Under the pieces are notes generated by a model. That model was given only the letters and a program-made list of their open reading frames with translations. It was not told the origin of the DNA and did no database searches. DNA of 64,000 bases, taken from NCBI GenBank assembly GCA_963921275.4, contig OZ001293.3, forward strand, positions 672,001-736,000, read 5' to 3'. The stretch comes from an uncultured Hormoscilla sp. GTDB lineage: Bacteria; Cyanobacteriota; Cyanobacteriia; Cyanobacteriales; Desertifilaceae. Both the position numbers and the translations under genes were made by a program. Positions 2,417 through 59,180 of the stretch are shown piece by piece; the first letter of the stretch is position 1; the number at the start of each line of letters is the position of its first letter.

Positions 2417-3623
2417 AAGAACTACCGTGCGATTCGTTCAGGCGTAAGCCGAAAATGGTGAAAGTCTGACTGGTTTCATTCGCCAGAAACTCTGGTCATC
2501 ATGAGGGTTAAATTCCCCCTCCCCAAGTACGGGGGTAACACCGGTCCTAAGTGCTACGGAGTCACATCGCCGTGGTGCGAAGCAAGGACTAAAATGTAGG
2601 ATAGCTGGCAGCCTAAGCCAGTGACGCAGCATGGCTGCGCCACGCTGCGCGATAGGAAAGATGCTCATGGTTAGAATAAGCGAACCTATGTAAACCTCGT
2701 CAATACCAACCAGCGGAATAAGGCTTATACGCTGGCCCAAAAGGGAAATGGTAGTTAGTGCTGGTTGTATTTACTGGCTAGCATCGTGCTCGAAGAACTC
2801 CCGGGGGATAGTAGGAACCTAAAAGCATCGTGAAATGATACCAGGGAACGAAGTAACCTCTTGTGAGCTGTCCTCATTTGGACAAGTCAGATGTAAAGCG
2901 CAAGCCACGAGGGGAGGGATGTCCTAAGAAAGCCAAAGCCTGGGGTAATGCCTAGGATATGCAGACGTAGAACGGATATGGTAAGAAGTTCTAAAAGAAA
3001 GTAGCCCTTAAATGTACTAAACCAGGAGCAATCCTAGGGAGTAATGGTGGATTAACGGTTCATCGACTGACCATAAAAGGCAAAATTTCATGGGACGAGG
3101 GACAAAGGGGGTAACCCAGAGTAATCCTACTGATGACAACAGCTTACCAACCAGTAGCCGGGTGCGGTTCCAGTCGCAAGCCCGGTTCCGAAAGGGAGGG
3201 TTGAAAAGTGATTTTCAGCTCGACCCCAGCCAAAGAGCGGTTTTGTGGTTTACTGGTTCACCCCCGCAAACCTTCCAGAGTTAGGTAGTTAACGGCTCCA
3301 CGACTGACCATAAGGGGCAAAATTTCATAGGACGAGGGACAAAGGGGGGTAACCCAGAGTAATCCTACTAATGACAACAGCTCACCAACCAGTAGCCGGG
3401 TGCGGTTCCAGTCGCAAGCCCGGTTCCGAAAGGGAGGGTTGGGGAGTGATTCCTAGCTCGACCCCGGCCAGATGAAAAGACACTACTTGAAATCCTGGAA
3501 ATGGCTCTGGCAGCTGAACAAAAAGCTAGAGAAATGAGTGAGTTTGCAACTGTGATCGCGTCAAAATATCAAAAACGGATGTCGGAAATCAGACAAGCAA
3601 GGAAACAAGGCGTAACTGAGTAG
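2413..3623 (+). CDS. Small hypothetical gene split by a group II intron (exons 2413-2426 and 3470-3623)
   Basis: Joining ATGAAAGAACTACC to AGATGAAAAG.. gives MKELPDEKTLLEILEMALAAEQKAREMSEFATVIASKYQKRMSEIRQARKQGVTE*. Confidence 0.7.
2427..3469 (+). mobile_element. ORF-less group II intron with two tandem DV/DVI 3' ends (3231 and 3469); collapsed twintron
   Basis: 5' GTGCGATTCG; two copies of AGCCGGGTGCGG..CGCAAGCCCGGTTCC DV, each followed by DVI ending CTCGACCCCRGCC. Confidence 0.85.
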
Positions 3624-4108: not shown

Positions 4109-4810
4109 CTCTTTATTGTTTTGATTTTGACTCTGTATCCTTCTCTATATCAAGATTCAGAATCAAACCCATTGTTCCGGACAAAGACAAATGGACGACT
4201 CCTGGTCAAGTTTCAGTAAATTTCCAGAAGCTATGACCAGACAAAGAGCAGTCGATCGCCATCTGTCCTAGAACTTTCGGTGTCTCCTGGGAGCTCGATG
4301 TCCCCCCAGAGGGGGACGCTTGATGTCTCCCGAGAGCGCTGCACAAAAGGGGAGACATCATAACCGCACTACCCCCGAGACATCGTAGTCGCACAACGGG
4401 GACCAGACACCGAGTCGTACTTGTTCGAGTCACCAGGCATTAATTGCTTGAGGCTCTTTCCCTAGCTTCAAACTCTCAGGGGGTTATGAACCAGAAACTT
4501 TACACTTATTTATTAATTGCAACGGTTCATAACAGTTTGTAAAGATTTGGTAAATTAAATTAAATGTAACGTAGATCACAAGTTGACCCTGGGGCCGCTC
4601 CCAAGGCTCAAGGAGCGCCACATCCCGAAGAGAAAAATATGAGAACAAGATTAAATCTAGTAAAGCTGGAGAGAACCGGTGAATCAGAATTGGTCAGAGT
4701 TTCACCAGTCTTATCAGAGTTGCCTCTGTTAAACCGGTGTGCCGTAGCCTCTGCTACGCTTTAGGGATAATGCCATCAGAGGTCCAATCAACTGCCAGAG
4801 AGATATAGCC

Positions 4811-5431
4811 ATGAGCATCGTTACCCTGCGATCGGTCAAAAAGGACTTTGGGATTAAGGAAATTCTCAAAGATGCCAGCTTCAGTCTGGATGCTACGGAT
4901 AAGGTGGGTTTAATTGGCACCAACGGTTCGGGTAAGTCAACGCTGTTAAAGATGATTGCCGGTATAGAGCCCATAGATGGGGGCCAACTGTCGGTTAACT
5001 CGGGGGTGCGGATGGTCTATTTGCCCCAGCAACCGGACTTGGACGAGCAGCGGACAGTGCTGGAGCAAGTTTTTGCTGACAGTGGCGAACAGATGACTCT
5101 GGTGCGGGAGTATGAGGAACTTTCTCACAAACTCGCCCGCAGTGCGGAGAAAAAGACTGCCAAAGAGAGAAAGCCTGCAAATAATAGCAAACCCCGCCGA
5201 CTTTCTAACTGGGAAAGGCAGGAGTTCGAGCAACTTGAAGAAAAAATTGCTAAGCTGGAAGCGGAGAAAGCCGAGGTGGAAAAAATACTGTATAAGGCTC
5301 CTGCTGGCAAGGTTACCCAGGTGCAAGAACTCTACCAACAGTTGTCCCAGTTGACTGGGGCGATCGATACTGCAACTGAGCGCTGGATGGAACTAGCAGA
5401 AAGAGACGCAGCACCCTCACCCACACCCTAA
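4811..5431 (+). pseudogene. ABC-F (Uup-like) ATPase with a large in-frame internal deletion
   Basis: Walker A GTNGSGKST and Q-loop joined directly to the C-terminal coiled-coil domain (ERWMELAE); no signature or Walker B motif, no second ABC domain. Confidence 0.8.
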
Positions 5432-10601: not shown

Positions 10602-12596
<1,995 letters not shown>

Positions 12597-12758
12597 TACG
12601 AGGATATTGATTCTTGACAAGTTTTTGTGGCGATCGAGTTAGCTTTGCAGCAATATTCCCTCTATGTCAGGCAAATTACTATTTATCTATAATCATTAGA
12701 ATCAGGTGCAGGTGAGGATCTGTAACTAGGCGGCGAACGGGCGATCGCCTCTGCAACC

Positions 12759-14746: not shown

Positions 14747-17305
<2,559 letters not shown>

Positions 17306-18184
17306 GACTTTACTCTTGACATTACCGTGAGGGCGTCAGCGTATCCTACCCATTACAGATAGGCGTTTGCTTCTCCACGAAATCTCTCCCAGGTATGACC
17401 TGCCCTAATGGAAGGCAGCTATTGCGTCTTTGGTGACTACTCTATCCATCGACCGGTGATAGAGAGTCCATACCTGGTTTACTTCGTTCCTATAGATGAT
17501 TGGTCGTAGTTTTAGGTGGATTCCACCACGCCAGTTTTTTTGTCGGTGCTTGTTGGTCGGTCAACTACCCGCCAACGACCAGTATCCTATCCCTTTTGGG
17601 CCAGTGTGTCAGCCTTATTTCACTGGTTACTGTTGACGACGCTTCAAATCTTCACTTTATGTTCACCATCACTACTTGCTTGGCGATAACCGGTTTGGGC
17701 TACCAGTCATTGCGCCTTTTACTCCCGCTTTACGGATTGATGCCATCTCTACCGTAGGGAGAATGCTGTCACTCCTGCACCTGGAGGGGTGGGCTTTCAC
17801 CACCATCATCTATAAGTTGTCTAGGCTAATGGAACCTAGCTAGTGGTCCCCCATCGGTTATTCACCGGTGGTTTACACTAAACGAATCGCACAATTGAAA
17901 AAAGTCTATGTAAGGATTACCAGCTTCATCAGCAGGGTAAGATGCTGGGAAAATATCACCCCCATATATATTTCTTTGATCGTTACGACCTATTGCCAAA
18001 TTATATAAAACAGTATCGACGGACTTCACATATTCTAAAGGAACCCCATCGTCTTCCCAACAAGCATCGTAGTCTTCTGGTTTTACTTTACTGGTGACAA
18101 AACTGCCATCAATATAAATAATTCTACAGCCTGCCGCTTTTAACTTCGTCATTGCCCGTGACAAGCTTTTTATCAGGCGCTGTC

Positions 18185-20373: not shown

Positions 20374-21206
20374 ATTAAACTAAGCCAGGGAGTTACCTCT
20401 CCGACTCGTCTTCAAAACCGGACGATCTGCTTTTCACCTCATCCGGCTCCTCAGTAATGCCACCCTTGTCATGGGTACGGCCACTACCATCACTGGCAGT
20501 CTTTATCTGCCGCTCTGTAAATTCTCAGAAGCAACTTAAAGACTACCCGTTCCAGCTTCCGCCAGGGGATACCCTTCCATTCATTCATCGATGTATCCAT
20601 CGTGCTTATGACGTATAGATTGCTACTTACAACTCTACTTTTGACATTACCGTGAGGGCGTCGGCGTATCCTACCCATTACAGATAGGCGTTTGCTTCTC
20701 CACGAAATCTTTCCCAAGTATGACCTGCCTGATGAGAGCAGATGTTACGGTGGCTACTCTACCTATCGACCGGTGGTAGAGAGTACATACCTGGTTTACT
20801 TCGTTCCTACAGACGATTGGTCATAGTTTTAGATGGATTCTATATGCCGGGTTTATTGTCAGTGCTTATTGGTCGGGAAACGAACTGCCAACGACTTGTA
20901 TCCTGTCCCTTTTTGGGCCAGCGTTTCAGCCTTTTCGCTGGTTCTAGATAACGACATTTATGAATCTTCGCTTTCGCTCATCATGACTACTTGCTCGACG
21001 ATAACCGGTAAGGGCTACCAGTTAGGGCGCCTTTTATTCCCGCTTTACGGATTGATGCCATCTCTACCGTAGGGAATATGCTGTCACTCCTGCACCTGGA
21101 GGGGTGGACTTTCACCACCATCATCTGTAAGTTGTCAGGGCTAATGGAACCCTGCTAGTGGTCTCCCAACCGGTTTCACCGGTGGTTTACACTAAACGAA
21201 TCGCAC
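20374..21206 (-). mobile_element. Group II intron of the RT-type lineage with almost the entire ORF deleted
   Basis: Same termini as 14728-17892; MNEWKGIPWRKLE..YRAA fused to the last ORF codons (HDKGGITEEPDEVK); removal restores IS630 R|NG. Confidence 0.9.
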
Positions 21207-29974: not shown

Positions 29975-30325
29975 AAACGCTTATCTAGTAAGGGTTTAAT
30001 GGCATCAGTTCCTCATTCCCTCGTCTTCCCAACCCAACTGCGATCGTCCAGATTCTGCCGGTGATAACAATGGTATACAGCCCAGATATCTCATATTTAA
30101 AGAATCCCGATCGCGCCCGCTCGCCTCAACGTTCGCATACAACCGGTGCTCTATTCAGTTTTCCTGGTAGTCTGATGCTGGGGCGATCGCTCTTTGATCG
30201 ATTATAAATCCCGAAAAATTATTTGTCAAGCTTGCGAACATCTCAGCAATCTAGCCCGCGCAGGCGGGCTTTGTTCGTGTAGGGGGGGCTTAATTTCTTC
30301 ATTTAAGCATCCATCCGCTTCATAT

Positions 30326-46385: not shown

Positions 46386-47080
46386 ATGTTTACTTGCGTG
46401 CCTACGATCCCGTTTGTAGTAAGGACTTTAGTCCTTACTGTTTGTCGCGCTGTTTGTAGTAAGGACTAAAGTCCTTGCCGTTCGGAAAGCGTATGTACCC
46501 TTGATAGGAATACAAGCAGAAGTTTGACTTATGCTAGATTCCGAATAATATTACAGCGCTTAACATAAAGATAGAATACAAAAATTATTGAATTGAGAAT
46601 TGATAATTGAGAAAAAATATTAGCCTCGTTTTTCCAATGTTCTGTATTAAACTGTCATGAAAAATGCTGTATATCCGGGGAATTACTGACAATTAATAAA
46701 ACCCGTAGGTCACCATCTAGAGCGCTAGCGAAACCTAACATCCTGTTTGGTTTCGTTTCTCAACCCAACCTACTGAGCTGCATTAACGATCGCGCCATAC
46801 GGATTTCCTATTATAACTTGCTCTCAGGCAAAGATAATTAATAGCTTGAAAAAAAATAGGCGTAGCCGCAGCTTGCTTTATTGAAAAAATAGCCAGGCGA
46901 GCGGGTGTGATAGCCTGATGTTTTGTTGTAAATTTAGGTGATGTTGACATTGGGGCTGAAGGAATGCTAAGCTGAGCGAAGCAAAAACTTGCAAGAGGGC
47001 AGCTACGGAAGAATTAGCGCTAAAGCGCAACTAAAAATGGGGCGATCGCCCGAAACAATTTCATCCCCAGCAGCAAAGTG

Positions 47081-47220
47081 GGCACTGGAGAGCGTATAAT
47101 TAAAAGGATCGTCTGAAATCCTCATCCAGTAAGGGATATAGCCATTTTATCCTCTGGGAACGAAACACCTGCCCTGTAAGGGTTTCAGCAGTTTTCTTGA
47201 ATCTTACGCTCTCCAGTGCC
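47081..47220. mobile_element. MITE (140 bp)
   Basis: TIRs GGCACTGGAGAGCGTA; 8-bp TSD GCAAAGTG. Confidence 0.85.
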
Positions 47221-47559
47221 GCAAAGTGAAATCAACTCAAATATGAAGTAAAACAGCTTTTTCGATTACTGTCGGGGCAAATTCTGTTTCTGCCTAGCGA
47301 TCGTCGCGCACTTCGTATCGGGCGATCACAATCAGACTGTACAACTGGGGGTGAAAATTCAGCCCGGAAACCGCACTTTTGCTATGAATTTGTGCCAATA
47401 TATAGATAATTTGGATGTTAATAGTCAATGGCGAGGCTATGTCCCTTGACAGGCGTGTAAAAATAGAATATCACCCCTATCAAGGGACATCGGTGGCGAA
47501 TGGATAATAGATAATAGCAATCAAAAATAATTAAAAAAAAATGAAAACTCAACTAAATA

Positions 47560-48910
47560 ATAATTTATTATGATGGGGCAAGTATCGCAATATTATGATA
47601 TTATTTGCTCTGTTTATTACTTTTAAGATCGGCGTTATGGTTCCAAATTTTCTCAGATATTTACAATTAAATAAGATGGGATCAGCATCAACCTATCAGG
47701 TCGTCAGCCCATGCTCTCCCAAGGCACGTTTAAAGCATTGCTGCTACTGCAAATACAGGTATAAAAAGATATTACTGTTGCCCAAAACTAACTGGCGATC
47801 GCCTACAATTTGTTTAAAAACTCTGACTGATTTCAATTCCGGTGTCATGGTAACAGGCGGTGAAGGACAACCTGTTTTTCTGACAGCTGTGGAGAATGAC
47901 AAAGCCAAGAGGATCGTCGGACAGGCCCTGGATATTTGGCTCTCTTATAAACAGAAATTAATCCCCATTTTAACTGCGAAAATACTATTGAACCAGAAAA
48001 GCTGCAAGAGGCTATCGCCTATGACAGCATAACCTCCAACTATTGGACTTAATAAATAGTTTTACCTTTGAATTAGAACAGATTACTAATCGCAAAGCTA
48101 CCGCTTGACAGCTCATCCAAACTTTTGGTATACTTCTGGCATTGTTTAAGTTTTTGATTCTGTTGTATCACACCTTAATAAAATTACAAGCTAGTGATGC
48201 CGAAATCGCCCAGGATCATCAGGAAATATCAGCCCTGAACCAGCAACTAACAGCGGAAAATAGCCGCATCAATGCTGAGATAGACGTGACGCGGAAATTG
48301 CAACAGATGCTCCTACCTAAAGAGCAGGAACTGAGTCAAATTATAGAGCTAGATATTGCAGGCTTTATGGAACCAGCTGCGGAGGTAGGTGGCGACTACT
48401 ACGACGTGCTTTATGGCAATGGGAGAGTAAAAATTGACAGCGGCGATGTCACGGGACATGGGTTAGAAAGCGGCGTCTTGATGATTATGGTGCAAACAGC
48501 AGTGCGTACCATGCTAGCAAATAATGAAACAGATACAGTTAAAATATTTAACGCCATAAACCGCACAATTTACGATAACGTGCAGCCAGTATCACTTGAC
48601 ATCCGCGATCTAATATATTACCATATCACGGATGTCAAGTGATACTGCCGGGTAAATTCCGAGAAAAACCTCACCCTCGCCTGGCTGGATTACTATGATG
48701 GTATCCCTCAGTTTGAGCGGACAACATGAAACTCTGATTGTGGTGCGCTCTAGCGGCGTGGTAGAACGGATTGATACGATCGACCTAGGTTTCCCGATCA
48801 GGCTGGAGTCCGACATTACCGATTTCATCGCCTCAACTAGGGTAGAGTTGCGGGGAAGTGGTGGCGCTGTATACTGATGGGATTATCGAAGCAGAAAATG
48901 ACCAAGGAGT
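47560..48910 (+). pseudogene. PP2C/SpoIIE phosphatase with sensor region, fragmented
   Basis: EVGGDYYD, GDVTGHGLESG, LYTDG; palindrome insertion 48588-48646. Confidence 0.8.
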
Positions 48911-49107
48911 GCTCTACGCTCAACCTGCGTCAGCTAGAATTTCTCAATAGTTCTGGCATCAGTATGCTCTCCAAATTTGTCATCAAGGTACGTCAGAAAA
49001 AAAATGTTACCATTTTGGTAATTGGCTCTAAAGGCATCCCCTGGCAGGGCAAGTCCTTGACAAATTTGCAGCGCCTAATGCCTAATTTGACCCTGGAGTG
49101 GGAATAA
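48911..49107 (+). pseudogene. C-terminal part of an Slr1659-like STAS regulator joined by deletion to the PP2C remnant
   Basis: LEFLNSSGISMLSKFVI..IPWQGKSL.NLQRL. Confidence 0.7.
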
Positions 49108-49182
49108 GTGCCGATGCTGCTACCAGTAACGTAAGCGTAAGGTGGGCACTGCCACCCTACATTTGACAACTAACCATTAATA

Positions 49183-49896
49183 TCACGGAGAGTCAGCGTT
49201 ATCAGGGATGGGTAAACAAATCTGATTATCTCCCTCAGTGCGGATCAACCCCTTCGATCGCAACTTGCCCATCAAGCGGGTAACCGTCACGCGGGTAGAA
49301 CCAATGGCGCTACCAATTTGGGCATGAGTTAATGACAAAGGCAGACAGTAACCGTTTTCACAGGATTCGCCGTATTCCTCAACCAACAGGTTGAGAAATC
49401 CTAACAGCCGGTCAATAGTACGCCGCTGTCCCAGAGTACTCAACCACAATAACTTCCGCTGGTGCTGATAACGAAAAGCATTCATCACCTCTCGCCGGAA
49501 GTGGGGCCAGTTATCCAAATCTTGCCAGTACATCCACACCACAGAGGTTTTGTCTATATGGGCATAACTTTCGATAGTAAAGGGCGAATGTGCTACAATC
49601 TCAAAAGGCTGTCCAGCTCCGACAAAACCTAAAAAAGATTCTTCTGGCGTCCAGTCGCTCAGATCTCGATGGCGAGTGAATCGCGACGAAGTGCTAGTAG
49701 CGGTGGCACTGACTTTGGAAATGCTCACCAGTCGGACAGCACCCCGTTGTACTAAATAGAGTAACCCCGGACGCACCGGAACCTTATCGTCTTTGTTAAA
49801 ATTCCGACACCTGTAATGTTCTTGGGCCCAGTCGATAATCCGTTGCCAAGTTAAAAAGGGCCGAGATGCCTCTGATTCTTGAGAAAGTGAAAACAT
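49183..49896 (-). CDS. devH: Crp/Fnr family regulator DevH
   Basis: RPFLTWQRIIDWAQEHYR; LTHAQIGSAIGSTRVTVTRLMG HTH. Confidence 0.9.
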   Translation of the reverse strand: MFSLSQESEASRPFLTWQRIIDWAQEHYRCRNFNKDDKVPVRPGLLYLVQRGAVRLVSISKVSATATSTSSRFTRHRDLSDWTPEESFLGFVGAGQPFEIVAHSPFTIESYAHIDKTSVVWMYWQDLDNWPHFRREVMNAFRYQHQRKLLWLSTLGQRRTIDRLLGFLNLLVEEYGESCENGYCLPLSLTHAQIGSAIGSTRVTVTRLMGKLRSKGLIRTEGDNQICLPIPDNADSP

Positions 49897-50180
49897 AGGC
49901 GACCAATTGTAGATATAGGATGGTATAATTTTGGTTGTTAACCCACAACCAGCAGCGCTGCAAATCGTAAATCCAAGAGTTCCAACGGGTACATTAGCTA
50001 CAATCAAACAAGCCAAATTAACTCCCGGTGTCTCCTATGCATGTGCGAGTAGGGGTCGGGAGACACCGCACCGGATAGAACTTACCCAGATATAAATGTC
50101 CCTGGTAAGTGTTTTATTCATCATTTGTCCCATATATAGAGTAGTAAAAAATACTTGTTCTAGACTAAAGAAAAATTGTT

Positions 50181-51249
50181 TTGTGTAAATTAGTGGTTTC
50201 TACGTCAGAGTTGAGTTTCCCAGAGCAGCCATCAACTCAGAGGATTTTCCCCACTGCTGCATGTCCTGCTTTTAAGTGCCTGCTACTAGATCGGCTTTTG
50301 CAGGTGATCGACCTACAGAATATTACACAGACCGATAATGGGCGATCGCCCCTCAAGGCTATGCTCTGGGAACGCTATGACGATGGTGCTAGCATCATCT
50401 ACAGGTCGGCGATCGCCCTCCGACTAGCCAGATCCCGACAGCTGAGCCCCCAGGACCTATGCGGTGTCTTCTGGTCGCTCGATGTCTCCCATATGGAATA
50501 CATGCTACGAGAGGCTTTTGGGGATGATTTCACTATACTCGTAGTGAGTCCTGGTTGGATTCAGCTGAGTCTCGGAGATTCTAGTTTAGCCCATTGGCTG
50601 CAATTTTTTACACAGACCTCATTCCCAATCAATTCTGAGTGGGTTATGTCTGTCCGGTCATCCTCTCAGCAACCGCCGGCGGACAGGATATTCCAGTGGC
50701 AATATGCTCATGCACACGGCTACGCCTGCTGTTCCCTCCTGCGGAACGGCGATCGCTCAGGGTCGATCGCGCAGCGTGCGGGCAGCGCAATCGCCCTCTT
50801 GCCCAACCCACCGTCGGCGACACTCGGCTGGCGGGCGATCGGGCCGATTGACTGGCTCACCTGCGAGGGTCAACTACGACTGGTGCATCCAGCTGAGCGC
50901 CAGCTGATTGGCCAGTTGTTAGCAACGGTGGATGGACTTTGTTGTCCCGACCGCCCACCCCAAGTCCGCACCTTCGATGTCTCGGGAGAGCTTGATGTCC
51001 CCCGGACGCACGGCGAAAACCCGGGGGACATCATATTCGCACTACTCCCGAGACATCGCTGTCCAATTAGTCCAGTCTTTAAGTCAGAGTTTTCTGACTT
51101 TTGAGAGTGCTTGTCGGATTTGGGGGGAGGTAAAAACCCAGACACCGCAGTTAGCGACTGCGAGATTGGGATTAATTTTAGCAGTTCAGCAAATCCTGAA
51201 ATTGTTGCTATCAGAGGTTTTGGGCGTTTTTGCTCCCAGCGAAATTTAA
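50181..51249 (+). pseudogene. DALR anticodon-binding domain protein, frameshifted by repeat insertions
   Basis: YRSAIALRL, PGWI, QYAHA..CCSLL, ARLGLI..VQQIL..LGVFAPSEI in a second frame. Confidence 0.75.
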
Positions 51250-51276
51250 ATTTTGAAAAAAAATTTGCTTTAGGGG

Positions 51277-51305
51277 GTGACAAATCGATCTTAGTGGGTT
51301 ATAGT
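51277..51305 (+). promoter_or_regulatory. Putative sigma70 promoter for the 6S RNA locus
   Basis: GTGACA-17 nt-TATAGT. Confidence 0.5.
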
Positions 51306-51306
51306 A

Positions 51307-52393
51307 AGAACCGTGTGGTGCGAATCGTTTTGGCGTAAGTCTGAAATATGGCGATCGCCGGGCTGGTTAATACCAGCAACTCTGGTCATCATGGGGGTTC
51401 AATTCCCCTTCCCCCAGGTACGGGGGTGACACCGGTCCTCGGTGCTGCGGAGTAACATTACCGTGGTGCCTCCCGAGGACAAATGTAGGATAAGGTCTCA
51501 GCCCAGAGACCGACGCCGCTAGGAAAGAGGCTCATGGTTAGAGCAAGCGAATCCCTGTAAGCATCGTCATCTTAAACAAGCGAAAAGAGGCTGACACGCT
51601 TGGTGCAAAATGCGCACGCAGTCCGCGTATCAGTGGTTGCACGTCACTGATATCGTACCCGAAATGACTGCCGGTGTATAGGGGAGACCTAAAAGCCTCG
51701 TGAAATGATACCAGGGAACGTTCCGGACAAGAGCGGTGCTGTCCAGATGGACAAGTCAGATGTGCGTCCGCGTAGCGTGCGCGCAGCGCCTAGCGCATGC
51801 CCGCGTGGGGAGGGAGGTCCTAAGAAGCTAATGCCCGGGGTAATGCCTGTGGATATGCAGACGTAGGACGGATATGGTAAAAAGCTCTAGGAGATAGTAG
51901 CCCTCTAAACGTGCTTAACCAGTGGCAACACTAGGTAGTAATGATGGACTTAAATCCTAACCGGGTAAAAATTTAGAGGCCCCATACGGGCACCTGTTAG
52001 TAAAGAACGGTCATAGTGGTTTTCTAGTTCCCCCCCGTAAACCTTCCGGAGTTAGGTACTCAACTAGTTCATGACTGACCATAAAGGGGCTATATTTCAT
52101 AGGGCAAGGGACAACGGGAGTAATCCCTAGTAATCCTACCCGTGACAAGGGTTTACCAACCAGTAGCCGTGTGCGGTGAAAGTCGCTCTTCAGGTTCCGA
52201 ATGGGAGGATTGTCCCGCGAGGGACAGCTCGACCCCGACCAGGAGCGAACCAGTGAGGGCACCGAGACGAAACACGGCCAGTCGTCGGTGCCCTTTCTGA
52301 TCTAAAACATCTCCACCACCGCATCCATTGAGCAGTTATCAGTGAGCAGTGACCACGTACCATGCCGAGTGACCACTTATTAGCATAGTTTCT
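51307..52393 (+). ncRNA. ssrS: Probable 6S RNA split by a group II intron (exons ~51307-51317 and 52241-~52393)
   Basis: Spliced form AGAACCGTGTG|AGGAGCGAACCAGT..AGGGCACCGA/TCGGTGCCCT stem..CTAAAACATCT..GAGCAGTTATCAGT..CATAGTTTCT; termini can pair; motifs recalled from cyanobacterial 6S RNAs. Confidence 0.7.
51318..52240 (+). mobile_element. ORF-less group II intron (923 nt)
   Basis: 5' GTGCGAATCG; EBS1 TGCACG (51638-51643) pairs with exon CGTGTG; DV/DVI ending CTCGACCCCGACC. Confidence 0.9.
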
Positions 52394-52483
52394 GGCGAGC
52401 AATATTTATATTGCTAATAATATCATGTTATCTATTGACAATTGTAAATTCGCAATTGACAATTTGGCATTTATGACATATTG

Positions 52484-52873
52484 GTGCGACTCGTTTAGTG
52501 TAGTGCGATTCGTTCTAGTCTAACGTGGGCAACTACGGAACGCTAGGCCAGGTCCAAACTGGTAACTCTGGTATTCATGGGGGTTAGATTCCCTCTCTCC
52601 AAGTGTGGGAGTAACACCGGTCCTTAGTGCTGCTGAGTCACATCACGGTGGTGCGGAGCAAGGACTTAAATGTAGGATAGCTAGCAGCCTAAGCTAGTGA
52701 CGCCGCTAGGAAAGATGCTAATGGCTAGAACAAGCGAACCTGTGTACGCCTCGTTATCTAGAACCAGCGAAATAAGGCTTAAAGCGCTGGCCCAAAAGGG
52801 AAATGGTAGTTTGTGCTGGTTCTTGCACTTGGCCAGTATCGCACTCTAAGAACTCCCGGGGTATAGCAGGGGC
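52484..52873 (+). mobile_element. Twintron 5' remnant: first 19 nt of an RT-lineage intron, then the truncated 5' part (52503-52873) of the ORF-less intron
   Basis: GTGCGACTCGTTTAGTGTA|GTGCGATTCGTTCTAG; matches the reverse complement of the 5' part of 15011-15844. Confidence 0.85.
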
Positions 52874-54354
52874 TCAGTTCGGGGCTTTTGCCTAATCTTG
52901 TGCTCCAATATGTGAGGTTCCCGTCGTATGGGCTTGCGGTCCCTTTCACTTTTACGTGTCTGATTATCTCAGTTTCGGAGTGTTTACGTATCTTCATATC
53001 ACCCTCTTTTGTCTTGCTTCGGAATCGCCATTTAGCATCCTGGTTTACAGACCAGTATTTATAGGTTATCCAGTTACTTGACTTGTTAGGGTGCCTCCTT
53101 TTGGCCCATTGCCATAGGATGTTCCATAGGTAGTTGTCCATATCGCTGTAAATTTCCTTGCTTACCACTGTCCTAAAGTAGTTTGACCATCCCCTTATTA
53201 TCGGGTTTAGCCTGCTTATTAGGGCCGCTTGTGGTGCTGTTATATGGCTAGTTACCATTTCTGATAACCGTTCTTTATGCTTCCCTATGGACTTATTACT
53301 GGGTTTGATTAGGGTTTTGAATCCTAGGGGTGTTCCGTTTGTTGATTTGCCGGTTCTGTATTTTCCCTCTTTATATTGCCTTATGTTAAATCCTAGGAAG
53401 TCGAATCCCGGGTTTTCTCCATTTAGCCTGTGGGCTATCTTTGTCTTTTCGGGCCTTCAACTCAAGCCCTATTCTTCTTAGCCACTCTGCCACCACTGTT
53501 TGCGCTCTGTCTATCATCTCCCTGTCTTCATGCATGATCACAAAGTCGTCTGCGTATCTGACTACCGTCAGCTTTCGCTTTTCCCTTTGTGTCTTTGCTA
53601 ATTCCATTACTGCTTCCTCTAACCCCTGTAGGGCTATATTGGCTAGCAGTGGGGATATGACACCCCCTTGTGGCGTTCCTGCCTCAGTTGTGTGCCATAT
53701 CTTCTTGTCAATCACCCCGGCTTTTAACCATGCCCGTACTTGTTTACGGATTGGTGACGTAGTATTTAATTTTTCGACTAGCGCTTTGTGGTCTATCCTG
53801 TCGAAACATTTCGCAATATCTGCATCTAATACCCATTTGGGTTTCTGTTTAATGCTGCTGAATATTGCCGCAATTGCATCGTGGCATCCCCGACCCGGTC
53901 TGAATCCGTATGAGTTCCCCTCCATATATGCTTCCCATTCGGGTTCAAGCGCAATCTTGAGGAGCCCTTGATTCGCGCGGTCGTGCATCGTGGGTATTCC
54001 TAAAGGACGTTTTTCTTCTCTCCCTGGCTTAGGAATCCATACACGACGTGTAGGCTTAGCCTTGTTTGAGATTTCAATCTGTCCTACCAGTTCTCGGCGT
54101 TGCTTTGGGGTTAGTGATTTCACACCATCCACACCGGCTGTCTTCTTTCCCTGGTTATCTTGTGTAACCCGTCGTACCGCTAGACATTTGGCAGCCCGGG
54201 AGCTTACCAGTAACCTTTGGAGCCTGCGAACTTTTTGCTTATTGCCTTCTTGTGCCGCTCTGTAAATTCGTTTTTGCAACTTAAAGACTACCCGTTCCAG
54301 CCGAGGCCAGGGGATATCCTTCCATTCATTCATCGATTTTGACATCGTGCTCAT
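52872..54354 (-). pseudogene. ltrA: Intron RT/maturase, frameshifted near 53455 and truncated
   Basis: TPQGGVISPLL, RYADD, NPIIRGW, YWSTRLGKSPEL. Confidence 0.9.
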
Positions 54355-54973
54355 GACGTATGTATTGCTACTTACAACTTTACAATTGACGTTACCGTGA
54401 GGGCGTCAGCATATCCCATCCATTACAGAAAGGCGTTAGCTTCTCCGCGAAATCTTTCCCAGATATAACCTGCCGAATGTAAGCAGATGTTGCGCCTTTG
54501 GTGGCTGCTCAACCTATCGACCGGTGGTTGAGAGTATGTACCTGGTTTACTTCGTTCCTCTAGATGATTGGTCGTAGTTTTAGGTGGATTCCTTATGCCG
54601 GGTTTATTGTCGGTGCTTATTGGTCAGAATTCAAACCGCCAATGACCATTATCCTTTCCCTTTTGGGCCAGCGTGTTTAGCCTTATTACGCTGGTTTGTC
54701 GTAACGACACTGTAAATCTTTGCTTTCGCTCACCGTGACTACTTGCACGCTGCGCGAAAAATCGGCGATGACCGGTTTAGGCTACCAGCCAGGGCGCCTT
54801 TCGTACCCGCTTCACGGATTGATGCCATCGCTACCGTGGGGTAAGTGCTGTCACTCCTGCACCTGGAGGGGTGGGCTTTCACCACCATCATCTAAAAGTT
54901 ATCAAGGCTAATGGAGCCTTGCCAGTGGTCCCCCTTCGGTTATCACCGGTGGTTTACACTGAACGAGTCGCAC
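52872..54973 (-). mobile_element. RT-type group II intron truncated at its 3' end (no HNH, DV or DVI)
   Basis: 5' GTGCGACTCGTTCAGTG at 54973; homologous to 14728-17892. Confidence 0.88.
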
Positions 54974-55048
54974 TAAAACGCCGACATTTTAACTTCTCTG
55001 TGCTGGGAAGCCGTAAAGTGTGTCTTACTACGAACGACTGACCCTCTA

Positions 55049-56027
55049 TAGTGAGTCTGTGCGATTCGTTCTAGCCTAACGTGGTCAAACACGGAACGCT
55101 AGCCCGGTTTCATTAGCCGGGAACTCTGACCGCATGGGGGTTAAATTCCCCTCCCCCCAGGTACGGGGGTGACACCGGTCCTCGGTGCTACGAAGCGACA
55201 TCATCGTGGTGCTAAGCGAGGACTCAAATGTAGGATAACTGGCAGCCTAAGCCGGTGACGCCGCTAGGAAAGATATCCAAGGTTAGAGCAGGCAAACATG
55301 TGCAAGCCTCGTTATAAGGAACCAGCGAAATAAGGCTATATGCGCTGGCCTAAAAAGGAAATGGTAGCTAGTATTAGTTTTAGACTCTGGCTAATATAGT
55401 ACTCAAATAGCTCCCGGGGTATAGTGTGGACCTAAAGGTATCGCGAAATGTTGTTAGGGAACGAAGTAACCTCTCGTGTGCTGTCCATCAGGACAAGTTA
55501 GATGTTAAGCGCAAGCCACGGGGGGAGGGATGGCCCAAGAAGCGAATGCCCGGGGTAATTCCTGGGATAACATCTACAGTAATGTAGATGATGCTGGGTA
55601 GCCAGCGCTGACGTGGGTCGGTGATACTAGGAAGCTGCTGGAATGAGTAATCCTAAAAAGCCACGGAACTAATCCGAAACGCAAGTGGAGGATAAGGTAT
55701 GGATAACTGGTAAAACTGACTTGAAAATGGTGATACTAACGGTTATCAGAACAACCACTCGCTAAACCAGGAAAGGGAAGAAAAGACAGGCGGCAAGGGC
55801 TAACGGAAGTAATTCCTATTAAGTCTACCTATGAAAAGGGCCTAGTACCCAGTAGCCGGATGCGGTGAAAATCGCAAGTCCGGTTCCTCAAGGGAGGGTC
55901 GGGAAGCGATTCCCGGCTCGACCCCATCCAAATCATTTGTGTAAATATTCTGGTAAATCAGCGCCCAAACCCTTGCGGGGCAAGTATTTCAGCAAACACA
56001 GATTGCACAACTAATTTAGGCTAGCTA
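55049..56027. mobile_element. IS630-type MITE (108 bp without intron) with a group II intron in its left TIR
   Basis: TAGTGAGTCT|AAATCATTTGTG vs CACAACTAATTTAGGCTAGCTA; TA flanks; TIR resembles the IS630 at 10602. Confidence 0.8.
55059..55929 (+). mobile_element. ORF-less group II intron (871 nt)
   Basis: GTGCGATTCG; EBS1 AGACTC (55382-55387) pairs perfectly with GAGTCT; canonical DV; end CTCGACCCCATCC. Confidence 0.92.
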
Positions 56028-56142
56028 TAGGCGCTTTCGTGCCTGGGAAGTAGTAAAGTGTGTCTTACTACGAACGGGGAAGACACACTTTACTGCTTAC
56101 TACGAACGACCGGAAGCGTAAGTCCTGACTAACTGACAGATT

Positions 56143-56613
56143 CTAGGGCAAAATAAGTGGCAAAAATTTGTCTGTCACGACGCTATTAATTTCCTGTGGT
56201 AAGTGGTCCATGCAGGGTTTGAGAAAGCCTTTGGCCGAGTTGATTAGTTCGGCGGGGATGACGCCGTCTTTGATAATCTGCTGTTGGTCGTAGATGTCGG
56301 CAATGAATAGGTTTAGGGCCCTAATCCGCTGCTTCAGTCCCTGTTCCAGCTTGGCCCATTCAGCCGCTGCTACAATCCGGGGGATGATATCAAAAGGAAA
56401 AATTCGCTCGGTTCCTTGGCGGTCCCCGTAGACGTTGAAGGTGACTCCCATCTTAAACAACGCTATCTGTGCTGCTTGTTCTCGCTGCTGGAGTTCCCCC
56501 TCTGATAGAGGGTCAGGCGTTTCTATCAAAGCCGCAGATTCTGGGCGTGGCATGCTGGCAGTGGCAAAAAGTTCGTCGTAGAAGTCCCCTGGATCCTATG
56601 ATGTAAACTGCAC
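56143..56613 (-). pseudogene. Circularly permuted type 2 ATP-grasp protein, truncated
   Basis: GVTFNVYGD..ERIFPFDIIPR..GLKQRIRALNLF.DIY. Confidence 0.8.
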
Positions 56614-56729
56614 GGGCTATTTTCTGCGATTGAGATCAATATTTATCATGCAGGTTCGTAGTGAGGATTTTAGTCCTCAAGCCGGTAAGCACTAAAGTGC
56701 TTACTACGAACCTAAAGTACTAACTAGGA

Positions 56730-57530
56730 ATGACTTATAACCGGTGGTCGCCGAAAGCTAAGCTGCTGCTAACTCTAGTGCAGCGGGATTTGGAAGCCCG
56801 ATACAAGGGTTCTGTTCTGGGTAATTTGTGGCCTTTGTTGAACCAGCTGTCACAGTTGCTGATCTATACCTATGTCTTCTCGATCGTCCTCAAGGTGAAG
56901 CTCAGTTTGTCTGGTGTACCGGCTAACAACTTGACCTTTGGCCTGTGGCTGTTCGCTGGCTTGCTGCCTTGGACGACCTTTATTACTAGCCTCTTGCAAG
57001 CCTCTACTTCTGCGATCGCCCAGCCAAATTTGGTCAAGAAAGTAGTCTTTCCCTTGGCCCTGTTGCCTCTGGTGCCGATTCTCGCAGCTTTTATTGAAAG
57101 TGGATTGGGAATGCTGACCTTAATTATCTTCACTAGCTTGTTCTCCCAGACCCTTCATGGTACTATCTGGCTTTTGCCCCTGGTCTGGTTGCCCCAGCTG
57201 TTACTGACCATGGGCCTGGGTTACTTGGCCGCTGGATTGACCGTGTTTCTCCGGGATGTGCCCCAAACCCTTGCAGTCCTGACTAATCTCTGGTTCTATG
57301 TCACCCCGATCGTCTATCCTGCTAATGTGATTCCCGAACCTTGGCGGACCTGGGTGCTTTGGCTTAACCCCCTGGCGGCGATCGTCCAGGTCTATCGCGA
57401 CCTGATTCTCACGGGACAGGTAAAGCATGTGGCTGAATGGGCGATCGCCACAGTTGTTTCTATCTTAGTCTTCTCAGGTGGCTTCTGGGTTTATCAACGC
57501 CTGCGCCCAGCTTTTGCTGATGTCCTCTAG
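56730..57530 (+). CDS. wzm: Polysaccharide ABC exporter permease
   Basis: RDLEARYKGSVLG..W; RD; TPIVYP; LNPL; FADVL. Confidence 0.92.
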   Translation: MTYNRWSPKAKLLLTLVQRDLEARYKGSVLGNLWPLLNQLSQLLIYTYVFSIVLKVKLSLSGVPANNLTFGLWLFAGLLPWTTFITSLLQASTSAIAQPNLVKKVVFPLALLPLVPILAAFIESGLGMLTLIIFTSLFSQTLHGTIWLLPLVWLPQLLLTMGLGYLAAGLTVFLRDVPQTLAVLTNLWFYVTPIVYPANVIPEPWRTWVLWLNPLAAIVQVYRDLILTGQVKHVAEWAIATVVSILVFSGGFWVYQRLRPAFADVL

Positions 57531-57830
57531 ACTAGACTATCGTTCTGGCCCGCCCCGCCCTAAAGGGACGGGCGGTGTCTGAAGCATGCCGCGTCCTTCA
57601 GGACAAGAGCATGCTTCAGACACCGATAATTGGTACAAAACCCGTCTGGGTTCGCTCGTTTCCTGACTCTGGCAGGGAACGTCTTCGGGAGGCAGAGCCT
57701 CCAGTCAGAATCATTGCTTCTAGACTAGCCTAGAGGCGGAGCCTCTAAAGCCGCGTCACCAGGCTCAGCCTGGTAACGAGATGAAACGAGAACCCACCCT
57801 ACACTCAACTTGAGATTACAGCCAGAAAGA

Positions 57831-59180
57831 ATGAGTGAAATTGCCATTTCACTAAAGAAAATATCCAAGTGCTTTCAGCGCTATGCCCGTCCGGCGGACC
57901 GCCTGAAAGAGCTACTGTTTCCTGGTAAAAGTCTGGCACAGAAGTTTTGGGCTTTGCGCGATCTCGATCTGGAAGTCCCCAAAGGACAGACTCTGGGTAT
58001 TGTCGGACGCAATGGTTCTGGAAAAAGTACCCTGCTGCAAATTATTGCTGCTACTCTCACGCCGACTACGGGTGCAGTTGAGGTGCAAGGCAGAATTTCG
58101 GCTCTCTTAGAACTTGGCAGCGGCTTTAACCCGGAGTTTACCGGTCGGCAAAATGTCTTTTTTAATGGACAGCTGTTGGGTTTGAGTCGCCGGGATATAG
58201 AGGATAAATTTGATGACATCGCCGCTTTTGCTGATATTGGTGATTTCCTAGAACAACCTGTTAAAACTTACTCTAGTGGCATGTTCGTTCGCTTGGCTTT
58301 TGCTGTCGCTACTAGCGCTGAACCTGATATTTTGATAGTGGATGAGGCTCTTTCCGTGGGGGATGAAGCTTTTCAACGTAAGTGTTTTGCTCGCATTCAA
58401 GATATTCGAGATCGGGGGGGGACGATTTTGTTTGTCTCCCATGCTGCGGCGACCATCGTGGAATTGTGCGATCGGGCTATTTTACTGGACGGCGGCGAAC
58501 TGCTCTTGCAGGGTACTCCTAAGTTTGTCGTTTCTAAATATCAGGAGTTTATTTATGCTCCGGGCGATCGGGTAGCATCTTTACGGCAAGAACTCCGCCA
58601 AGCTAATGAAAAGTTGCTGGCTGAGACTAATATAATAGGGTCAAAGAATATCCACTTAAATAGTAATCTTGAAGAAGAGACGCCAGAATTTTACGACCCT
58701 TCCCTAAATCCGGAAAACACGATATCCTACATTAGCCGGGGGGCAAAAATTATTAATCCCGGGATAACTACAATCGCCACCGGTAAGCTAGTAAATCATT
58801 TGAGCGGGCGTCGCAAATACCTTTACAGCTATTCAGTTCGGTTTTGGCAGCCCGCCCAGAATGTCCGGTTTGGTATGCTGATTAAAACTGTTAGTGGATT
58901 GGAGTTGGGAGGCGCTTCCTTTTCTCCTTCCTTTCATGAGAGCGTGGATTTTGAGGCCGAGCAAGTGGTCAGGGTAAAATTTAGATTTCACTGCCTGCTA
59001 CATCCGGGAGTTTATTTCTTAAATGCCGGAGTATCTGGTATGGTGGATGGAGAATTCGTTTACTTAGCCCGTTGTATAGATGCAGCTATCTTTCGAGTAA
59101 AATCGGAGGAAAAATCCTGTGGCAATGGAACGATCGACTTTAAGATTGAACCTAGTTTGAGTTTATCTGGGGAGGAGTGA
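57831..59180 (+). CDS. wzt: Polysaccharide ABC exporter ATPase with C-terminal carbohydrate-binding domain
   Basis: GRNGSGKST, YSSGMFVRLAF, VDEALSVGD. Confidence 0.93.
   Translation: MSEIAISLKKISKCFQRYARPADRLKELLFPGKSLAQKFWALRDLDLEVPKGQTLGIVGRNGSGKSTLLQIIAATLTPTTGAVEVQGRISALLELGSGFNPEFTGRQNVFFNGQLLGLSRRDIEDKFDDIAAFADIGDFLEQPVKTYSSGMFVRLAFAVATSAEPDILIVDEALSVGDEAFQRKCFARIQDIRDRGGTILFVSHAAATIVELCDRAILLDGGELLLQGTPKFVVSKYQEFIYAPGDRVASLRQELRQANEKLLAETNIIGSKNIHLNSNLEEETPEFYDPSLNPENTISYISRGAKIINPGITTIATGKLVNHLSGRRKYLYSYSVRFWQPAQNVRFGMLIKTVSGLELGGASFSPSFHESVDFEAEQVVRVKFRFHCLLHPGVYFLNAGVSGMVDGEFVYLARCIDAAIFRVKSEEKSCGNGTIDFKIEPSLSLSGEE

Follow-up and report, generated by a model that had tools for sequence, protein, structure and literature searches.

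A small non-coding RNA gene interrupted by a group II intron was found in a 64,000-nucleotide (nt) stretch of DNA from an uncultured Hormoscilla sp. (contig OZ001293.3, forward-strand positions 672,001 to 736,000; assembly GCA_963921275.4), hereafter the window, whose own numbering is used for all coordinates. The intron lacks an open reading frame (ORF), occupies 923 nt of the plus strand (51318-52240) and lies in sense orientation to the gene; a preliminary description of this DNA had already placed an ORF-less group II intron in a promoter-proximal non-coding RNA gene. It is flanked by a plus-strand 5' exon of about 5-9 nt (51309-51317), whose end is fixed by the empty site in related genomes and whose start is placed by its distance from the -10 box, and by a 3' exon (52241-52300, plus strand) that constitutes the body of the RNA. 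The host gene is probably a divergent member of the Cyano-1 family, here called Yfr2-like, and we consider it very likely that the intron sits in a small regulatory RNA (sRNA) gene of this kind.

The intron boundaries were delimited by comparison with the syntenic loci of two other Hormoscilla metagenome-assembled genomes (L001 and L002), which were retrieved in a search with the neighbouring ORF among genomes represented by one per species, the window's own genome not being among the matches. When window positions 47000-58000 were aligned to these loci with blastn, stretches 50544-51317 and 52241-52483 fell on contiguous blocks in both of them (4285-5143 and 5144-5379 in L001; 10113-10971 and 10972-11207 in L002). 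Positions 51317 and 52241 are therefore adjacent bases in either genome, each of which carries an empty site. Indeed, a three-way alignment of the in-silico spliced window with the two loci gave an unbroken run of 83 identical columns that extends from the -10 box as far as TTTCTG, and removal of the intron yields a sequence identical to the uninterrupted gene of both genomes. The intron starts with GTGCG at 51318 (GTGCGAATCG) and finishes at 52240 with ...CTCGACCCCGACC, a terminus that was also read as ...CGACCCCGACC; an intron end of the form ...GRCC is backed by reading-frame continuity for one of the related introns described below (intron B). A precise insertion with respect to an empty site and a GUGYG 5' end, both characteristic of group II introns, were thus found together.

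Full-length homology links this intron, designated intron A, to four other ORF-less introns of the window (sister introns B, C, D, and E2), located at 2427-3469, 12522-11688 (minus strand), 15844-15011 (minus strand), and 55059-55929. Its membership in group II follows from this relationship, since the family includes copies that pass the RF00029 model at 44-47 bits. None of the 13 stop-to-stop frames of at least 40 amino acids (aa) in intron A matched a Pfam family at E<=0.1, indicating an ORF-less derivative devoid of reverse transcriptase (RT) and maturase. A search of plasmid records for closer relatives was uninformative, with seven records matched and none over more than 9% of the query. 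Judged by its sequence, intron A belongs to an ORF-less family that is proliferating and is itself unremarkable, apart from some degeneration. The boundaries given in the preliminary description proved exact, the GTGTG/AGGAG junction it predicted is present as uninterrupted sequence in L001 and L002, and the lack of an ORF was borne out.

The uninterrupted gene of the two relatives pointed to the probable identity of the host. Both L001 (5135-5202) and L002 (10963-11030) matched RF01701 (Cyano-1) over the complete model (positions 1-69 of 69) with 36.4 bits, a value under the gathering score of 41. The corresponding E was 1.2e-4 in a 501-nt scan (L001 5000-5500) and 0.0083 for each genome when the 35.7 kb of both loci were scanned with 4227 families, these being the only matches below E 1. 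The 3' exon of the window reached 23 bits by itself, over model positions 15-66, and the part of the model missing from this match is the unpaired 5' motif, which is the site of the intron. Compared with the family consensus of this motif (..UGUGUGAGGAG), the Hormoscilla sequence (CGUGUGAGGAG) matches 10 of the 11 upper-case positions, and it is unpaired both in the model and in the minimum free energy (MFE) fold. The intron splits this conserved single-stranded motif between GUGUG and AGGAG, leaving its second half (AGGAG, 52241-52245) at the beginning of a 3' exon that is identical in the three genomes.

Downstream of the motif, a hairpin at 52256-52294 is formed by the stem AGGGCACCGA/TCGGTGCCCT, which the preliminary description had correctly recognized, and a 12-nt loop (GAAACACGGCCA), and is followed by a U-run (TTTCT, 52294-52298). 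Of the Cyano-1 loop motif, only the first half (GAAACA.GG) is conserved. A folding energy of -30.8 kcal/mol (z -3.56) was obtained for the uninterrupted 73-nt sequence, and none of 200 shuffled sequences folded as well. Conservation ends right after the U-run, near 52298, where a 9-nt indel separates the window from L001 and L002; this limit and the match to RF01701 point to a conserved RNA of 65-70 nt that would terminate at the U-run.

Members of the Yfr2 family carry the Cyano-1 motif as their hallmark and are mostly transcribed from their own promoters (PMC8400943). Together with Yfr1, they are almost universal in cyanobacteria, and the conserved motifs of the two RNAs are nearly complementary: the Yfr2 5' motif binds Yfr1 and Yfr10 and lifts the repression exerted by Yfr1, the first stem-loop contains another conserved motif, and the family is represented by several gene copies whose loci are not conserved (PMC6778093). 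The UCCU of the Yfr1/Yfr10 motif that was mutated in that study is the complement of the AGGA located just after intron A. The Hormoscilla gene resembles the family in its predicted product, a short stand-alone RNA with a candidate promoter of its own, an unpaired 5' motif (...GUGUGAGGAG) and a stem-loop with GAAACA in the loop. It differs from it in scoring 36.4 bits rather than the curated 41, in having nine extra bases between motif and hairpin, in its shorter, G+C-rich hairpin with the second half of the loop motif lost and, in the window, in being interrupted by an intron. The designation Yfr2-like, rather than Yfr2, was chosen because of the score below the curated 41 bits.

Alternatively, the host sequence may not be a functional sRNA gene at all, and the likeness of the hairpin and the preceding GUGUGAGGAG to Cyano-1 could be due to chance, as in a terminator-like hairpin within decaying intergenic DNA. 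Such an explanation would fit the score below the gathering threshold, the near-identity of all homologues and the lack of any solid gene in the surrounding 1-2 kb, where a 307-aa ORF belongs to no family and is fragmented in L001; in addition, most introns of Thermosynechococcus elongatus are intergenic (PMC2882425). However, the match extends over the full length of the model, comprises both the 5' motif and the loop motif, has the correct spacing from a promoter-like site, and was the sole one below E 1 in the 35.7 kb of both loci against the whole set of families. Moreover, the 83-nt stretch is invariant whereas its flanks vary, including the 9-nt indel immediately behind the U-run. We therefore regard a chance resemblance as improbable.

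Two other interpretations of the 3' exon were set aside. AGGAG is followed, after 7 nt, by a GTG and 15 codons, which could be read as a leader or small ORF; this frame lies within the hairpin and was attributed to chance, and in L001 no ORF of at least 100 aa follows it for more than 1.2 kb. The hairpin is also unlikely to be the terminator of the 307-aa ORF upstream (50181-51104, plus strand), an ORF that matches neither a Pfam nor an NCBIfam family and is broken up in L001. A terminator scan returned no sites under a rule limited to loops of 3-8 nt, the loop of this hairpin being 12 nt long. The ORF itself is part of a stretch rich in G+C, in which several frames contain long ORFs; it shows 55% and 38% identity in L001 and L002, respectively, is in pieces in the former, and is probably not a functional gene.

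The preliminary description had assigned the host gene to 6S RNA (ssaA), the global regulator of RNA polymerase, which binds the holoenzyme and templates product RNAs; the assignment was based only on motifs ascribed to this RNA and on the position just behind a promoter. The locus does share with 6S RNA the trait of a non-coding RNA gene near a sigma-70-type promoter in a cyanobacterium. However, no RF00013 match at E<=10 was obtained in five scans, covering window positions 50500-56500, the 3' exon region (52200-52480, 281 nt, with lax filters), the whole window, the uninterrupted L001 5000-5500, and all of L001 and L002. In the last two, nature provides what the preliminary description had proposed to search, namely the gene in its spliced form, and the uninterrupted gene matches RF01701 instead. 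In 6S RNA, about 180 nt fold into a rod, with the 5' and 3' ends paired in a closing stem and a bubble in the centre; the conserved unit is here about 70 nt long, and the MFE fold of the 164-nt spliced candidate consists of separate local hairpins, with neither an end-to-end closing stem nor a central bubble. Thus, the RNA of approximately 165 nt with pairable ends that had been envisaged gives way to one of 65-70 nt, and 6S RNA is ruled out as the host with hardly any doubt left. Since Yfr2 is a multi-copy family and not a single global regulator, the loss of one copy would also matter much less than had been assumed. The dilemma formulated at that stage, of an RNA that is either dependent on splicing or knocked out, finds support and is addressed below.

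Upstream of the 5' exon, a sigma-70-type promoter-like site on the plus strand (51277-51305) consists of GTGACA (51277-51282), a 17-nt spacer and TATAGT (51300-51305), with 10 of 12 consensus matches. The preliminary description had recognized both hexamers and placed them one base off. Four promoter-like sites were counted in the 1.7-kb region, compared with 2.0 +/- 1.6 in shuffled sequences, so that by number such a match does not exceed chance. However, L001 and L002 have the same two hexamers, although two bases of the spacer differ. We take GTGACA/TATAGT as the predicted promoter of the sRNA gene. With the start of transcription placed 6-9 nt after the -10 box, the intron would be encountered about 5-9 nt past the predicted transcription start.

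The choice of this target is compatible with base pairing between exon-binding sites (EBS) of the intron and intron-binding sites (IBS) of the host. EBS1 (TGCACG, 51638-51643, plus strand) was assigned to the loop of a hairpin with the stem ATCAGTG/CACTGAT, and IBS1 (CGTGTG, 51312-51317, plus strand) corresponds to the last six bases of the 5' exon and holds the first half of the conserved 5' motif. In intron A, the two form six of six possible pairs, four of them Watson-Crick and two G-U. The homologous loops of the sister introns pair with their own 5' exons at 6/6 positions in D and E2 (Watson-Crick), 5/6 in C and 4/6 in B. This covariation supports the EBS1 assignment, already made in the preliminary description, as well as the view that intron A inserted by reverse splicing at a target similar to its cognate site. 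Another candidate for EBS1 (CGCACG, 51612-51617) was rejected, as this segment is conserved rather than variable in the sister introns.

The case of EBS2 is less clear. The candidate TCTTA (51570-51574, plus strand) lies in a segment that is variable among the intron copies, and it is complementary over 5 base pairs to TAAGA (51305-51309, plus strand), the candidate IBS2, which shares the last base of the -10 hexamer. The pairing noted in the preliminary description is therefore present, yet the assignment is kept tentative because the sister introns do not confirm it: inspected by eye, the equivalent segments of C, D, and E2 show no clean pairing with their exons. Owing to the overlap with the -10 box, IBS2 is probably absent from the transcript, although it is present in the DNA target.

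The most marked peculiarity of intron A resides in domain V (52165-52196, plus strand), in which the AGC triad and the GAAA loop are kept and three stem pairs are broken. Canonical pairs number 10 of 13, whereas the four sister introns, with five copies of domain V between them, have all 13 in each copy, and the broken ones adjoin the catalytic bulge, in agreement with the weakness of this domain pointed out in the preliminary description. Its MFE is -6.8 kcal/mol, as opposed to -16.2 to -17.0 kcal/mol in the sisters, and RF00029 gave 20 bits (E 1.6, 52162-52239), in comparison with 44-47 bits for three other copies of the window. Intron A is thus below 40 bits for this model and its domain V helix is not intact. 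A domain V at 20374-20451 (minus strand), which belongs to the other intron type and has 7/13 pairs, was left out of the comparison, given that the 32-nt register used throughout is unsuited to it. Domain VI and the 3' end (52203-52240, plus strand) were delimited from the sister-intron alignment and the RF00029 structure line of the copy at 55851-55927; the presumed bulged branch-point A is located at 52232, 8 nt before the 3' splice site.

In total, intron A differs at 80 of the 480 columns that are invariant in the other copies. An enrichment of these substitutions in domain V was considered and rejected, with 4 of 25 columns changed in this domain and 76 of 455 in the rest (Fisher p 1.0). 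With this equal rate of divergence, domain V, normally the best conserved part of such introns, gives no sign of additional constraint. Because three of the 13 domain V pairs are broken beside the catalytic bulge, splicing is thought to be lost or strongly reduced; provided that the host is Yfr2-like, we give this outcome slightly better than an even chance, and the retention of splicing slightly worse than an even one.

Taken as a whole, the locus is best interpreted, with a confidence that stops a little short of even, as a Yfr2-like gene copy that was hit by group II retrotransposition and is now probably disabled or weakened. This confidence is the product of two others, namely the high one that the intron is in a Yfr2-like gene and the much more guarded one that it no longer splices usefully. 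Intron A would have inserted into the DNA through reverse splicing, in an event of retrotransposition or retrohoming whose target was selected by EBS1 and perhaps also by EBS2. The reverse transcriptase would have been provided in trans by one of the many other introns of the genome. Transcription from GTGACA/TATAGT would then produce a primary RNA of approximately 1 kb, whose tiny 5' exon contains IBS1 and lacks IBS2, and the mature sRNA of about 65-70 nt, including the motif that pairs with Yfr1/Yfr10, could be released only through splicing assisted by a trans-acting maturase. Any such maturase must come from elsewhere in the genome, since the intron is ORF-less and both RT genes of the window are split. 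As the 5' motif of Yfr2 is the one that pairs with Yfr1/Yfr10, the intron cuts the one stretch needed for titration of the partner, and the gene copy would be silenced or hypomorphic, a loss that the cell can tolerate because Yfr2 genes come in several copies. Decay is evident close to the site, with both RT ORFs of the window split and a pile-up of intron fragments directly downstream.

Several observations weigh against this interpretation. With regard to the host, its score is under the RF01701 gathering score, its only homologues are those of two close relatives with an identical sequence, which provide no covariation support, neither a second Yfr2 copy nor a Yfr1 partner was seen in the 64-kb window, and both the start and the end of the transcript are predicted positions. 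As for the 5' motif, two further copies with one mismatch were found in the window, compared with 2.9 expected by chance, and none is considered real. With regard to splicing, not one of 83 nt in the exons has changed with respect to L001 and L002, in contrast to differences of roughly 4-16% in the non-coding DNA on either side; a copy dead for long would not be expected to have unchanged exons while domain V gained four to five substitutions. The divergence of intron A suggests an old lineage whose domain V may have been unusual, yet active, at the time of insertion. RNAfold also offers an alternative register of domain V in which one bulged G restores two pairs (U-A and G-C) and the six lower-stem pairs are kept. 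Furthermore, the 5' GUGCG, the AGC triad, the GAAA loop, the bulged A of domain VI, EBS1, and the A at exon position 1 are all intact.

Most of these latter features would be accommodated by an alternative with the same anatomy, in which the intron is still spliced by means of a maturase acting in trans and the Yfr2-like sRNA is a splicing-dependent riboregulator. The pairing motif would in this case be assembled by exon ligation, and the intron would benefit from a strong sRNA promoter, as a Yfr2 promoter has been described to be in Synechocystis (PMC4094844). The invariance of the exons next to diverged non-coding DNA, the sense orientation of intron A, the complete EBS1-IBS1 pairing, the intact catalytic and terminal elements, and the six lower-stem pairs retained in the shifted register are consistent with it, as is the precedent of ORF-less cyanobacterial introns mobilised and spliced in trans, together with the tRNA-Ile(CAU) case (PMC2882425). 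It has to contend, however, with a domain V in which three of 13 pairs are broken beside the bulge, with a stability of -6.8 versus about -16 kcal/mol and an RF00029 match of 20 bits (E 1.6), with an IBS2 that overlaps the -10 box and is probably missing from the transcript, and with the lack of an intact RT/maturase ORF in the 64-kb window. On balance, we see continued splicing as a real but minority prospect. A related proposal, in which Yfr1-Yfr2 titration would be gated by the activity of the intron or of a maturase encoded elsewhere, so that the Yfr1/Yfr10-binding motif exists only after exon ligation, with a 5' exon of fewer than 10 nt, is given somewhat less than one chance in three.

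Whether or not the Yfr2-like copy is disabled, the closest parallels are found in T. elongatus, where ORF-less introns can rely on the proteins of other introns for splicing and mobility and where the only tRNA-Ile(CAU) gene is interrupted by an intron, TeI4h, for which splicing is presumed (PMC2882425). The TeI3 family of that organism resembles the present one in comprising compact, multiplying, ORF-less introns that depend on the protein of other introns, form twintrons and select their sites by EBS/IBS pairing (PMC2882425). TeI4h is alike in occupying a non-coding RNA gene. Unlike in T. elongatus, the host is here a regulatory sRNA and not a transfer RNA (tRNA), no more than about 10 nt separate intron A from the predicted transcription start, and it has a damaged domain V. 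A literature search conducted mostly outside subscription journals found, among the papers listed, no precedent for an intron in a 6S, Yfr2 or other sRNA gene, and no papers on introns in Hormoscilla.

Bacterial group II introns reside mostly in intergenic DNA or in other mobile elements and, among non-coding genes, in those for tRNA and ribosomal RNA. What is unusual in the present case is that a trans-acting regulatory sRNA, as identified from sequence, is hit within its pairing motif and a few bases from the predicted start of transcription, the host family being one of the two most widely conserved sRNA families of cyanobacteria. If the intron is spliced, the locus would show that bacteria can produce, and perhaps control, a riboregulator in a manner not described before, would encode their first regulatory sRNA to depend on splicing, and would be a natural test of the shortest 5' exon that a group II intron can use. 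If it is not, one Yfr2 paralogue would be naturally knocked out here while its alleles in sister genomes are free of the intron, a pair useful for studying the function of a single copy. In either case the consequence for the cell is likely modest, because Yfr2 genes are multi-copy, and an attractive but wrong 6S assignment has been corrected.

Ten group II intron 5' ends (GTGCGA.TCGTT) are present in the 64 kb, at 2427, 51318, 52484, 52503, and 55059 on the plus strand and at 54973, 21206, 17892, 15844, and 12522 on the minus strand. They represent two types, one ORF-less (about 830-1040 nt) and the other RT-encoding. The syntenic 35.7 kb of L001 and L002 contained no RF00029 match.

The pile-up directly after the sRNA gene extends over 52484-55929. 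It begins with the first 19 nt of an RT-type intron, cut at 52503 by an ORF-less fragment that reaches about 52779, continues with a minus-strand RT-type intron starting at 54973, whose RVT_N/RVT_1 domains (53386-54354) and maturase domain (52779-53258) are in separate ORFs, and finishes with the complete ORF-less intron at 55059-55929. Both L001 and L002 have an empty site between positions 52483 and 52484, and the sequence beyond the pile-up (55930-56517) has no counterpart there. Beside it, at 56143-56553 (minus strand), lies a gene fragment for a circularly permuted ATP-grasp protein, of which only the first approximately 136 residues are encoded (positions 1-63 of the 374 in the profile).

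At 30252-30275 (minus strand), a single match to the RF01356 clustered regularly interspaced short palindromic repeats (CRISPR) direct repeat scored 36.6 bits against a cut-off of 35; Tandem Repeats Finder, which is not designed for spacer-separated CRISPR repeats, reported nothing at this position. Among the remaining introns, the one at 2427-3469 (plus strand) has its domain V-VI end duplicated in tandem (3058-3231 and 3232-3469) and interrupts a small ORF in frame, its EBS1 loop pairing at only 4/6 positions with the 5' exon. The intron at 12522-11688 (minus strand) lies in the 5' leader of an ORF at 11302-11682 (region 11688-12600), with a promoter-like site (TTGCAA-16-TATAAT), identified by eye, about 30 nt upstream, and is thus a second intron located just behind such a site. 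Finally, a twintron at 14765-17892 (minus strand) consists of the ORF-less intron 15844-15011 within an RT-type intron that starts at 17892, the outer intron having its RT in two parts (16872-17255 and 15824-16888) and its domain V at 14765-14806.

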